Shown: positions 2,448-6,608, counted from the first letter of the stretch. The stretch is DNA of 64,000 bases from an uncultured Smithella sp. (GCA_964646755.1 CAZYIE010000001.1:4160-68159); one strand, 5' to 3'. Made by a program: numbers and translations. Notes: a model not told the origin generated them from the sequence alone.

Positions 2448-2716
2448 CAGGCTGTTGTAAAGCAGGTGCTTTTTAGTACAGGTGGTTTGGATAAGAACCA
2501 TAGTTTATCCGGTTAATGAGTTCTTAGGATTACGCTCTTTACTGTATAACACAATACACAGACATTGAAGAAAATGCTTGATTTCGAATGGAAATAGAGC
2601 GTAATATTTTTTTAAGCGGGGTGCGGTGAAAGGTGGACAACTCCCTCTGAAGCTGCAAATGGACATACTTTGAAATACATGCAAGCCCACAGACGTTACG
2701 AGAGAAAATTGATGTC

Positions 2717-3010
2717 ATGATTGACTTCGAATGGGATGCCGCAAAAGCTACAACGAACCTCCGAAAACATCGTGTTGCTTTCAGCGAGGCAACCACCGTT
2801 TTAAGGAACATTGCTAGCATTACGATCCACGATCCGGATCACTCTTTTGATGAAGACCGCTACATAACAATTGGAACATCGATTGCCGATCGGCTTTTAA
2901 TGGTTTCCCACACAGACCGGGGAGATCGAACCCGTATTATCAGTGCAAGGGAACTGACTAGAAAGGAGCGTGAAGCTTATGAAAACGAAATCCATAGACG
3001 AAAAAGATGA
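2717..3010 (+). CDS. brnT: BrnT-family (DUF497) ribonuclease toxin
   Basis: MIDFEWDAAKATTNLRKHRVAFSEA is the conserved BrnT N-terminus. It is 97 aa and overlaps the downstream antitoxin gene. Confidence 0.8.
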   Translation: MIDFEWDAAKATTNLRKHRVAFSEATTVLRNIASITIHDPDHSFDEDRYITIGTSIADRLLMVSHTDRGDRTRIISARELTRKEREAYENEIHRRKR

Positions 3011-3227
3011 CGAACTTCGTCCCGAATACGATCTTTCGTCCCTGCTCAAGGAAGGTGTGCGAGGCAAATACGCCAAGCGTTATGCGCAAGGGACAAACCT
3101 GGTTTTGCTGTCGCCTGATGTGGCAAAAAATTTCCCCAATGATGAAGCGGTGAACGAAGCGCTTCGTTTAGTAATACAGCTTAAAAAGATTCCGGGCAGC
3201 GGCAAGCGCCGGGTTATTGGGCTGTGA
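2979..3227 (+). CDS. brnA: BrnA-like antitoxin partner of BrnT
   Basis: The DDELRPEYD...VRGKYAKRY...GTNLVLLSPDVA...AVNEALR pattern is that of antitoxins paired with DUF497 toxins. The ATG at 2979 lies 10 nt after AGGAG and the gene overlaps the brnT 3' end. Confidence 0.65.
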   Translation: MKTKSIDEKDDELRPEYDLSSLLKEGVRGKYAKRYAQGTNLVLLSPDVAKNFPNDEAVNEALRLVIQLKKIPGSGKRRVIGL

Positions 3228-3600
3228 GAAAATAAGTCAAATTAAAGGGTAACGTTTCGGGATGTTGGCGGCATGATTTTAAAATTGATTATTTTGGATT
3301 TTAGGTGAAACAAAAAGCGCAATGATAATTTTTATTTGACATCTTCAATAATCATTATGAATCCGTAAACCTGTGAAATTGGTGAAGACCGACAGAAATG
3401 TTTACAAACGACCAGTCGGAAAATAGAACCATTGTCATCTTTTTTTCTCCCTGCGATGCCTTGCATCTAAACCCTTTTGAACAGTTTGTAAAAATTTGGA
3501 TGGTTTATTTTAGTAAAACTGGAAATTAGAAATAAATAGAGCCTTTCCATAAAATTATTTAATTGTTGGACGACGATAAAGAAAGGATGCTTGAGCAGAC

Positions 3601-5706
3601 ATGAGTCTATTCGATCTCAATATTGAAACGGTTTTAGAGCATTGGGAATGTGAACATGGACTTCGTGAGATCATTGCCAACGCCCTTGATGAACGTACGC
3701 TAACCAGCACTCCGCCGATCAGCATCGCGAAGGATGATCAGGGGCGCTGGCATATTCGCGATTTTGGCCGTGGCATCAGAATCAAGCACTTCACGCTAAA
3801 TGAGAATCTGGAGAAGGTTGGTGCAGACTGTGTCATCGGCAAGTTTGGTGTCGGCCTCAAAGACGCCCTTGCGACCCTTGATCGACATCACGCCAAGGTT
3901 TCGATCAGTTCCCAGCACGGCGTTTTCACACTGACAAAAGCCGCCAAGCATAACTTTGACGGAATCACCACGCTTCACATTTCGCACGAACCCGGAGACC
4001 AGACGATCAGAGGTACAGACGTCATACTCACTAACATTCCTGATACTGACATGACAAAAGCAAAGTCAATGTTCCTCTGTTTCCGGGAGCATCGTGTTCT
4101 GGAATCCACACCATTTGGCCAGATCATCGAAGCCGTGCCATCAGGAGCAGAGGTCTTCATCAATGGTGTGTGGGTCAACGCGGAACCCGCTTTCCTTTTC
4201 TCCTACAACGTAACCAGCCTGACCGATTCGATGAGGAAAGCTCTCAATCGTGAGAGAGTCAACGTCGGCAGATCGGTCTACGCGGATCGCCTACGCCAGA
4301 TTCTCAAATGCGCAACTGCAGCGACCGTCCTGCAGCCGCTTGCCGCCGCATATTCAAGCAGGGACAAAGGAGTACTGACGGAGGAACTCGGATGGATTGA
4401 TATCGCGCACAAAGCATTGAATGAATTGGCAAGAACGCAGAACGTTGTCGTTGTTTCGCAGACGGAGATCAAGGCGCGGCCAGAGCTTGTTGAAGACATC
4501 AAGCGTGATGGTCGCCAGATCGTCTTGCTCACAGACCGAGAGAAGCAACGTGCTGACCAACAGGCCGAACAAGGCAAAGCGCCGTTTCAGACGCTTAGCA
4601 CATGGATTCAGTCCGTTAACGACAGTTTCCAGTACCAGTTTGTGGATGAAAGCGAGTTCACCGGAAACGAGGCCGAAGTGTGGCAAAGACGAAATCAGAT
4701 ACTTGGGTTAGTCGGCCTTCGTCCAAACGCCATCCCGCTTATTCGCGTTTCCGAAACGATTTGCACATCGGCAGACGGGACCACCGGTACATGGGACAGC
4801 AAACTCAACGCCATTGTTGTCAAGCGCACGCAGCTGCGTTCACTTCCAACATTTGCGGGGACATTACTTCACGAGTTGGCTCACGCCATCACTGGCGCAG
4901 TGGACTGCACGCGATTTTTTGAGAACACTCTCACCGAGTATATCGGGAAGGTTGCGGCCACGGCCTTATCAGGCGTTACGCCAATTGTTGATCATGCCGA
5001 TGAGCCAAACAACAAACCTAGCCCTTCCGCGCCAGAAACACCCGTCTTACTTGGTGGCATAGCAGTTGTCCCAGTGGAGTCACGAGATGATTTTACTACA
5101 AAAACCTTAGACTCTTTTGAATCCACAACATCCGACGATAAGAAACAAGCAAGAGAAGATGAAGTCTTGGAAGTGAAAGCCATCTATGAGAATTGGGGAG
5201 TTTTATCAAGCGTAGTAACCGGTACTCTTGATTTATATATATCGGAAATAAACCTTTTTCCGCTGCTGACGCCGGAAGAGGAATTCAAACTGGCTGTGCG
5301 TTTGAAGAAGAACAACGATATGGCGGCGGCCGAAACACTGATTAATTCCAATTTACGTTTTGTGGTAAAGATTGCCCATGAATACCGCAATTACGGTTTT
5401 AAACTGGCCGATCTGATCCAGGAAGGCAATATCGGCCTGAGTCATGCTGTGAAAAAATTCAATCCCTACAAGGGCTACCGGCTAATATCTTATGCCGTCT
5501 GGTGGATTCGAGCCTACATTCAAAATTATCTGATTAAGTCCTGGCGCACTGTTAAAATCGGAACCACACAGCCGCAGAGAAAATTGTTTTTCAAATTGAG
5601 CCAGGCGAAAAAGCAATTGGAGACTCTTTCGCAAAAAAATCCGGAATTTGCCGAAATCGCTGAATCGCTGGGCGTAATAAGGTCCCGAAGTAGCCGAGAT
5701 GGATAA
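3601..5706 (+). CDS. Chimeric ORF: GHKL (Bergerat-fold, MORC/MutL-like) ATPase plus an HExxH metallopeptidase-like region, read in frame into a sigma-32 fragment
   Basis: GHKL motifs occur in order: EIIANALD (nt 3667-3690), DFGRG (3760-3774), [14 protein letters not shown] lies at nt 4870-4884. An RpoH-like sequence starts around aa 534. About 370 bp of AT-rich DNA lies upstream. Confidence 0.6.
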
Positions 5707-5713
5707 CTTCTGA
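5200..5713 (+). pseudogene. rpoH: RpoH-type (sigma-32) gene fragment covering regions 1.2-2.4 only; frameshifted and truncated at its 3' end
   Basis: [56 protein letters not shown] and the RpoH-box-like QRKLFFKLS are present. The expected continuation EVAEMDNF sits in the +1 frame (5687-5710) and is followed by TGA. No region 3 or 4 is found downstream. Confidence 0.6.
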
Positions 5714-5778
5714 AGAAGAGAGTCAAGTATTAAGAATCCGTAGATATTGACTTACATCATAGAAGGAGAAATTAAAAA

Positions 5779-5957
5779 ATGAAAAATGTAGAGATAAAAG
5801 TGGAAGAAAATATTCTGACTATTAAAGTTGATTTAACCAAAGAATTTGGCCCGTCAGCATCCGGAAAACTATTATCATTGCATCAACGGAAGGAAATATT
5901 ACCGTAGATGGGCATGAAAAAACTAAAATAGGATTGAATGTCTATAAAAAGAATTAA
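5779..5957 (+). pseudogene. Small conserved hypothetical gene (about 59 aa) interrupted by a 1-nt frameshift
   Basis: The ATG at 5779 follows a GAAGGAG RBS. It reads MKNVEIKVEENILTIKVDLTKEFGPSASGK, then the sense continues in another frame (TIIIASTEGNITVDGHEKTKIGLNVYKKN*) after the A-run at about 5866. Confidence 0.45.
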
Positions 5958-6093
5958 AGGTGCAGTGATTTATCGCTATCTTAAAAATAAATGAGACGGT
6001 TCTATTTAATATTGATGGCTGGTTTTATTATAAATATAACCGTCCCCATTTCTTCACCAGCCGTTGTATATCACAAGTTGTAAAACAATCTGA

Positions 6094-6122
6094 TTGACAA
6101 TTCGTAGCCGATAGGCTACACT
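6094..6122 (+). promoter_or_regulatory. Putative sigma-70 promoter of higA with an embedded palindromic operator
   Basis: TTGACA (6094-6099), a 17-nt spacer, then TACACT (6117-6122). The inverted repeat GTAGCC-gata-GGCTAC (6104-6119) fills the spacer. Confidence 0.35.
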
Positions 6123-6186
6123 GCTGACATGGTAGAAAATCGGAAAACCGAATTCTTCATTGGTGCAATAGTTATAGGAGTTCATT

Positions 6187-6504
6187 ATGGCAAAGACTGT
6201 TACAACAAAATATGACGTTGCCGAGCACCTCCGTACGCCGCAGGAGATGGCTGCTTATCTGGAGATGTGTATTGAAGAATCAAATGGCGATGCAGCGTTT
6301 ATTACTAAAGCATTGGGAGATATTGCCAAAGCAAGAGGTATGTCTCAAGTGGCAAGAGATGCCGGTCTTTCACGGGAAAGTCTGTATAAGGCGCTCTCCG
6401 GAGAAAGAAGTCCGGGATTCGATACCATTCTTAAAGTAATAAGCGCCCTGGGAATAAAGTTGCATGCAGAAGCAGCCGGGACAGCAAAGCTAAGAGTCAG
6501 ATAA
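6187..6504 (+). CDS. higA: HigA-family addiction-module antidote protein (HTH), with no cognate toxin gene upstream
   Basis: YDVAEHLRTPQEMAAYLE...ALGDIAKARGMSQVARDAGLSRESLYKALS matches the 'putative addiction module antidote' family. A GGAG RBS is present. Confidence 0.75.
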   Translation: MAKTVTTKYDVAEHLRTPQEMAAYLEMCIEESNGDAAFITKALGDIAKARGMSQVARDAGLSRESLYKALSGERSPGFDTILKVISALGIKLHAEAAGTAKLRVR

Positions 6505-6608
6505 AAGCAATCCAGCCGATCTTTTTTCCCCGGCATGTGTTCATCAGCTTGTTGCGTGGAATATCAATTTAATGGAATAATCAGTATATGTTGTGATGTA
6601 GAAATATT

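Follow-up and report, generated by a model that had tools for sequence, protein, structure and literature searches.

A variable slot between larB and larE across Smithella: a probable recombination site without mobility genes of its own

This study examined a 64,000-nucleotide stretch of DNA from an uncultured Smithella sp. (GCA_964646755.1 CAZYIE010000001.1:4160-68159; hereafter the window), in which the nickel-pincer cofactor genes larC and larB are separated from larE by 4161 bp (window 2448-6608). A first-pass annotation made from the sequence alone had described this interval as an accessory island of the kind found at variable hotspots, with content unrelated to cofactor synthesis, and comparative data on the gap and its cargo in other Smithella genomes back that description. 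Combined, the results indicate that a variable slot exists at this position throughout the genus and that the interval is probably the content it has acquired in the present species, the slot being a passive recombination site that carries no mobility genes. The features of the locus are collected in Table 1; congeneric genomes are referred to by G numbers, contigs by C numbers and retrieved loci by L numbers.

Table 1. Genes, gene pieces and repeats at the larC-larB/larE locus (window coordinates; aa, amino acids; ORF, open reading frame)
Feature	Position	Strand	Basis or remark
Left flank of the slot, larC-larB	463-2447	+	Pfam and NCBIfam; syntenic across all congeners
larC	463-1686	+	Ni_insertion 2e-144, LarC1/LarC2 (Pfam and NCBIfam profile searches)
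larB	1689-2447	+	NF033503 LarB, 6e-91
Repeat A remnant, first 10 nt (CAGGCTGTTG)	2448-2457	+	Directly after the larB stop; rest of A missing
Element B	2458-2535	+	In relatives (G001, G009) located next to the right end of A; starts at the end of the 10-nt A remnant
Near-duplicate of the brnT start (MLDFEWK*)	2574-2597	+	Repeat search, 16/18; tblastn E=0.02
brnT, BrnT-family RNase toxin	2717-3010	+	PF04365, 4e-26, profile positions 1-77 of 77
Antitoxin-position ORF overlapping brnT	2970-3227	+	82 aa from ATG 2979 (85 aa from 2970)
Right half of an A copy	3448-3495	+	blastn to A of G002, G004, G001 and G009
Element C, degenerate hairpin repeat (~60 nt)	3496-3562	+	C follows A in G009, G011 and G012
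701-aa ORF	3601-5706	+	
GHKL ATPase and HExxH gene, MPN635_N (PF25856) family	3601-5088	+	Cut after codon 496
Linker read in frame	5089-5210	+	~120 nt, GC 0.36
5' part of rpoH, about codons 5-160	5211-5750	+	In frame with the GHKL gene
Frameshifted small gene	5779-5957	+	42-aa ORF (5779-5907) versus 59 aa when intact
C-like hairpin repeat (stem GACGGTTCTATTT / AAATATAACCGTC)	5985-6052	+	DNA fold z = -3.8
HigA-type antitoxin, orphan	6187-6504	+	TIGR02684, 5e-35
Right flank of the slot, larE with its conserved ribosome-binding region	6576-7433	+	
larE	6609-7433	+	TIGR00268 LarE, 6e-100

Coordinates and profile matches agree that larC and larB are contiguous and that larE resumes at 6609 on the same strand, as had been proposed. 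A search for LarE in 30 relatives, with retrieval of the loci, found a constant gene order within the genus (MBL-larC-larB-gap-larE-orf97-phzF), and the final ~30 nt 5' of larE can be aligned throughout the genus; the linkage of larE to larCB is therefore kept across Smithella, and the alternative that larE is normally unlinked in this lineage does not hold. Outside the genus, larE either precedes larB, in the orders larC-larE-larB and larE-larB-larC, or is convergent. The adjacency of larB and larE is a trait of this genus alone, so that the place where the two genes meet is in itself a site of genus-specific rearrangement.

A comparison of larB-larE junctions showed that the flanks are kept while the gap varies in the relatives from 10 to 3842 bp with unrelated cargo. 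The slot holds no cargo in G003 (10 bp), repeats alone in G004 (193 bp), G012 (292 bp) and G002 (343 bp), and measures 194 and 205 bp on the metagenome contigs L134 and L135, respectively. Longer fills carry a pentapeptide protein (G011, 801 bp), a caspase-domain protein (G010, 2104 bp), a DUF4468 lipoprotein and others (G001, 2205 bp), LutC- and LutB-like proteins (G005, 2904 bp), and a helix-turn-helix protein, a ClpX-zinc-finger protein and others (G009, 3842 bp); the 4161 bp of the present genome carry brnT, its partner ORF, a 701-aa ORF, a small frameshifted gene and higA. In G006 and G007, larB and larE lie on separate contigs, each broken within the gap. None of the five genes of the present genome occurs in the larB-larE interval of any congener, so the possibility that close relatives share the intervening genes was not borne out. 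In a tree of larB and larE, sister species have different fills (4161 bp in the present genome vs. 2104 bp in G010; 2205 bp in G001 vs. 292 bp in G012; 343 bp in G002 vs. 10 bp in G003), indicating repeated gains and losses, many of them independent, in agreement with the earlier suggestion of repeated insertion and deletion at this site. Additionally, every cargo ORF in six genomes is co-directional with the lar genes; this covers at least 12 modules, and would arise with a chance of about 2^-12 if orientation were random.

The island is host-like in composition overall. Its GC content is 0.447 against 0.454 for the genome, and its tetranucleotide distance lies at the 26th percentile of 4.2-kb windows; the GHKL part is the only atypical stretch (tetranucleotide 98th percentile, GC 0.51). 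No integrase or transposase domain was found in any island ORF with Pfam and NCBIfam, no tRNA was found in window 1-20000, and the longest word common to the two island ends (2448-2716 vs. 6505-6608) was 7 nt, a length equalled by 79% of shuffles. The profile, tRNA and repeat searches thus uphold the absence of integrase, transposase, tRNA and flanking direct repeats that had been noted at the outset, and the features that characterize an integrative genomic island (integrase, att direct repeats, atypical composition) are lacking for the island as a whole. The island was also searched for pieces of larB and larE, with none detected, and PADLOC returned just a weak MzaA match, which was due to the sigma domain.

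The individual genes of the island range from apparently intact to clearly decayed. The brnT gene looks intact, spanning the full length of its family profile. The pair had been named BrnT/BrnA, of which the toxin stands and the antitoxin name does not: the partner ORF has no match in Pfam (including BrnA; E <= 0.1), NCBIfam or the PDB. Its homologues of ~82 aa number more than 7900, and in several cases a fusion with PF04365 was called; they argue instead for a common BrnT partner belonging to a very large unannotated 82-aa family outside Pfam BrnA, and the overlap with brnT is consistent with an antitoxin role. An 18-nt near-copy of the brnT start (2574-2591 vs. 2717-2734, 16/18 identical) was also noted 143 nt upstream of brnT; the near-duplicate that contains it is possibly, and only tentatively, a relic of an earlier brnT, or else a chance match.

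The 701-aa ORF is a composite. Residues 1-496 are the only part that is 90% identical to the 555-aa P0001, a protein of the MPN635_N (PF25856) and KTSC (PF13619) family, and this homology ends exactly where the KTSC domain starts (aa 493-550 in the homologues). The GHKL-HExxH assignment was therefore borne out as an MPN635_N-family gene whose body is present and whose KTSC tail is missing. The linker that follows shows no similarity to GHKL homologues or to the regions upstream of the relatives' rpoH, save for a short stretch resembling a ribosome-binding site. The C-terminal third of the ORF (aa ~531-694) is a piece of rpoH, matching positions 2-153 of 270 in TIGR02392 (214 bits, with a cut-off of 323). 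Over nucleotides 5211-5703, identity to the rpoH of congeners is 83-91%, with 91% for the nearest relative (G010) and 83% for G006, which is among the most distant; this gradient of identity identifies the piece as captured host DNA derived from the genus' own rpoH. A frame slip near 5680, after ...AESLGV, places PEVAEMDNF in the next frame, and similarity fades by ~5750; rpoH regions 3-4 are absent downstream at the locus and from the whole assembly. The sigma-32 fragment of the first-pass annotation is thus real, covering rpoH codons ~5-160, but it is not a separate item, being an in-frame part of the 701-aa ORF. The GHKL gene is likely foreign, and its fusion to the 5' piece of rpoH would have cost it the KTSC tail. 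For annotation purposes, the 701-aa "GHKL-sigma" protein should be regarded as a junction product. Full-length GHKL-HExxH-KTSC relatives were seen to come last in a conserved set of four or five genes, all in one direction (L046:2539-7665, L047, L048), which encode proteins of 304, 386, 189/235, 100 and 554 aa without a confident Pfam match; a literature search on KTSC and GHKL found nothing useful.

No full rpoH was found in the assembly of the present species. In relatives, rpoH has as its neighbors genes for an htpX-like M48 peptidase, ClpB, a diadenylate cyclase and a tetR-family regulator (L041, L040). The 98.9%-complete metagenome-assembled genome (MAG) lacks orthologues of the genes for the peptidase, ClpB and the cyclase, and the regulator has only a weak match (45% identical). 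Because these neighbors are missing as well, the native rpoH locus is most likely unbinned and the island piece a partial duplicate; what looks like a missing rpoH most likely reflects a gap in the assembly. A true loss of rpoH in the species was considered and rejected on the same ground, the conserved neighbors being equally absent from the assembly.

Decay is also evident in the right part of the island. The small gene carries a one-base frameshift, so that its second half is read in the +2 frame, and its status as a frameshifted gene was upheld by an intact 59-aa paralogue on contig C2 (23273-23452, 81% aa identity). For the HigA-type antitoxin, no HigB or other toxin remnant was found in 2400-6700, in keeping with its description as an orphan, and a higA paralogue on C14 keeps its HigB. 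A promoter scan found a promoter-like TTGACA-17-TACACT at 6094-6122, upstream of higA; promoter-like sites in the region are no commoner than in shuffles. Together, the truncated GHKL gene, the truncated and frameshifted rpoH piece, the frameshifted small gene and the antitoxin without a toxin confirm the decay of several components that had been proposed.

The AT-rich spacers at 3228-3600 and 5958-6186 are indeed low in GC (0.33 and 0.36, respectively), but they are not featureless, as they hold remnants of dispersed palindromic repeats. The principal family, repeat A, was delimited by comparison of the gaps as an element of ~125 nt with ends CAGGCTGTTGAAAAAGG and CCTTTTTGAACAGCCTG and 17-nt terminal inverted repeats. 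Full copies of A abut the larB stop codon in G001, G002, G004, G009 and G011, the position at which the present genome keeps the 10-nt remnant. Element B, which adjoins this remnant, is recognizable from 94% identity between window 2452-2535 and positions 416-499 of the G009 gap and from 88% identity between window 2466-2534 and positions 132-200 of the G001 gap. Further into the island, window 3458-3556 matches positions 2351-2449 of the G009 gap with 89% identity and window 3476-3539 matches the G012 gap with 94%, both spans including part of the half copy of A; the copy of C at 3496-3562 no longer folds. The C-like hairpin at 5985-6052 matches the C copies of G009 weakly. Overall, the present island and that of G009 have a common repeat skeleton (B, cargo, A and C, cargo, C, cargo).

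Repeat A is widespread in the genus. BLAST detected it in 12 of 13 Smithella genomes at up to 23 copies each, with none in G007, and copies in the present genome include those at C23:820-944, C29:40532-40642, C18:57488-57614 and C1:221299-221417. Twenty-three A copies fold into a predicted 30-pair hairpin with compensatory changes at 10 of the 30 pairs. Directly before the repeat, 16 of 19 copies have a TAG, TAA or TGA triplet. The triplet is proven to end a gene in the case of larB (several species) and of larE (G011); the broader proposal that every such triplet is a true gene end was rejected, since an open frame precedes only 10 of the 16 remaining copies, a proportion that does not clearly exceed chance. 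Behind A there is usually a short hairpin with a T-run, suggesting a role for the repeat at transcript 3' ends. As a short, multi-copy, non-coding element with terminal inverted repeats, A answers the description of miniature inverted-repeat transposable elements (MITEs) and REP-like repeats. TAA stands on both sides of A in a few copies only, with no consistent target-site duplication seen; no partner transposase was identified, no search for one having been made, and nothing useful was found in the literature on Smithella MITEs. Intergenic palindromic repeats of the ERIC, REP and Correia types, together with MITEs, form the natural comparison class for A, which resembles them in size, inverted ends, copy number, position downstream of genes and the nesting of other repeats; A differs in that 16 of 19 copies stand directly after a stop triplet, a placement that is unusual. 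Copies of A in G002 and G012 harbor other small repeats. The nested element of G002 (L024, gap 63-195) is 133 nt long, has inverted ends AGACTTTTGAAAAAC / GTTTTTCAAAGGTCT and is inserted in the central loop of A; the small palindrome found inside A in G012, and at C29:40643 of the present genome, is a different one.

Several explanations other than passive recombination were weighed. Entry of the island as a single prophage, integrative conjugative element or integrative mobilizable element, by site-specific integration and with later loss of the integrase and the ends, would account for the atypical composition of the GHKL part, for the conserved five-gene set that the GHKL gene ends elsewhere, and for the toxin-antitoxin (TA) genes, which are common on mobile elements. 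However, no integrase, att repeat or tRNA was found, the content is of mixed origins (including the genus' own rpoH and a small gene whose paralogue is chromosomal), and ten relatives show many unlike small fills rather than the presence or absence of one element, which makes such a remnant distinctly unlikely. A functional tie between cargo and lar genes, with the slot serving as an operon extension for lactate or nickel-pincer cofactor metabolism, is extremely improbable: the LutC- and LutB-like lactate-utilization proteins of the G005 slot speak for it, but the present cargo comprises TA parts along with pseudogenes and the GHKL gene in truncated form, and no cargo is common between species. 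The possibility of an assembly chimera, affecting the rpoH junction if not the arrangement as a whole, draws on the origin of the sequence, a 74-contig MAG (3.28 Mb; the window corresponds to C1:4160-68159) that holds no full rpoH, and on a break at 5623-5629, inside the rpoH piece and adjoining an A-run, in the assembly of JGI metagenome 3300020048. In that assembly, one contig equals window 1-5629 (99.9%) and another 5623-12000 (99.98%). The JGI contigs nevertheless independently join larB, the brnT pair and the GHKL gene to rpoH up to 5629, and rpoH from 5623 to the small gene, higA and larE, with the same gene continuing across the break; since the rpoH sequence runs from one contig into the other, the join seen in the window is the simplest reading. 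Three ENA contigs also match 1862-4541, 2311-3089 and 5886-6600 at 100%, and the missing rpoH neighbors point to an unbinned native locus, so that a chimera is highly improbable.

The repeats bring in two further alternatives. An integron-like cassette array without an integrase (CALIN) would have A and C as attC-type sites, used in one orientation by an integrase acting in trans. Such an array would agree with the co-directional and mostly short cargo ORFs, with TA genes as typical cassette cargo, with the structured palindromic repeats between some modules here and in G009, and with the occurrence at other loci of integrases above the TIGR02249 cut-off (402-442 bits) in four congeners (G003:C65:479-1423, G005:C125:3394-4338, G009:C62:3978-4919 and G007:C28:500-1453). 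It is nonetheless very unlikely, because the present genome lacks IntI (best TIGR02249 match 80 bits against a cut-off of 265); the ends of A (GTTGAAA...TTTGAAC) place the GTT box first and AAC last on either strand, whereas attC has the opposite order (RYYYAAC...GTTRRRY); the DNA beside the four intI genes contains none of A, B and C; the modules of G010 and G005 are without such repeats; and A copies are scattered singly after many genes. A crude attC pattern scan found no site anywhere, nor beside the true intI genes that served as its positive control. Beside these intI genes, the upstream DNA was observed to contain repeated inverted repeats of the ATTTTCCACTTATTAC type, and no obvious cassette array was seen upstream of intI in G009 and G005. 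A different possibility is that A and C serve for recombination in a cassette system that needs no integrase, is orientation-specific and docks small gene modules behind host stop codons, the larB-larE slot being one array among several. Such a system would explain the co-orientation of the cargo, the repeat skeleton common to the present island and G009, and the placement of A after stop triplets in 16 of 19 copies; we consider it unlikely.

Passive recombination at the larB-larE slot is favored by several lines of evidence taken together. The G009 slot contains a 31-nt larB 3' end, 2.2 kb from that genome's own larB and followed by A and C, which differs from G009's own larB at 5 of 31 positions and resembles the alleles of other species; it reads as a direct footprint of DNA recombined from the larB-larE locus of another lineage. 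This footprint, the split A copy, the captured rpoH, the truncated GHKL gene and the lack of any mobility gene led us to read the slot as a passive recombination site. Small cargo modules would be added, replaced and eroded through recombination, by homologous exchange at the conserved flanks and the dispersed palindromic repeats (A, C) on the one hand and by illegitimate joining, which could also capture host DNA, on the other. The present content, an apparently intact BrnT-type pair, a GHKL-rpoH' junction, a frameshifted small gene and an antitoxin without toxin, would be the product of such events. Only co-directional cargo may be tolerated, keeping larE transcribed by read-through or from the promoter-like site upstream of higA, and selection for larE transcription is the simplest reason for the co-orientation. 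The mechanism of entry had been called unclear; in our view it can now be confined to recombination that uses the conserved flanks and the dispersed repeats. A number of points weigh against this interpretation. No exchange event has been directly observed, and the cargo of G010 and G005 is not bordered by A or C, so the repeats are not required. Co-orientation could equally reflect an orientation-specific insertion mechanism, and the join at 5623-5629 is spanned by no single independent contig.

The locus resembles several known systems. Minimal mobile elements in Neisseria consist of variable genes between the same conserved flanks, without mobility genes and with small repeats nearby, and homologous recombination in the flanks is regarded as their route of exchange (Saunders & Snyder 2002; Snyder 2007; PMC3787668). 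The larB-larE slot agrees with them in its variable content between fixed flanks in close relatives, its lack of mobility genes and its nearby repeats, and thus corresponds to the descriptive definition of a minimal mobile element; the transfer mechanism that defines these elements is only partly supported here. In Neisseria strains were compared, whereas the present comparison concerns species of an uncultured genus for which natural transformation is not known, and the slot described here lies inside a biosynthetic gene cluster with all cargo co-directional. Integron cassette arrays and CALINs are similar in their stacked, co-oriented small genes, TA cargo and palindromic repeats between some modules; they differ in that the present locus has no IntI, the wrong box order, many modules without a repeat and repeats that are scattered singly. 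The pdif modules of Acinetobacter are small and plasmid-borne, often carry brnTA or higBA, and are bounded by 28-bp XerC/D sites without a transposase. Small TA modules without a transposase are likewise found here, but no Xer-type site was identified.

The slot is therefore probably an ordinary recombination hotspot, a well-documented case of a known kind of locus and not a new mobile element, and current concepts are unchanged by it. It shows gene turnover in uncultured syntrophic Smithella at a fixed site in a cofactor-biosynthesis cluster, with no dedicated mobile element, where toxin-antitoxin and defence-like genes are gathered and eroded. Its most interesting aspects are the in-frame GHKL::rpoH' product and the stop-codon-abutting repeat family A, which is a candidate terminator, RNA stabilizer or recombination site.

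Among the other observations, the LutC-like and LutB-like genes of G005 (L031:1143-3826; LUD, 4Fe-4S and CCG, with the LUD domain at 3e-55) are the sole fill with a plausible functional tie to lactate racemase cofactor genes. An Rfam scan of window 1-9000 gave only spurious microRNA matches, on a GC-rich hairpin at 7519-7618 downstream of larE. The junction between the MBL gene and larC (window 451-462) is a second variable site, measuring 12-15 nt in the present genome, G010 and G011 and 660-790 nt in G001, G002, G003, G009 and G012, with a copy of repeat A inside it in G009. Approximately 2 kb upstream of larC, a VapB-VapC (PIN) pair lies between gcvP and lipA (L131:1127-1713, on contig C1 of the present genome), representing a further small TA insertion in the lar neighborhood.

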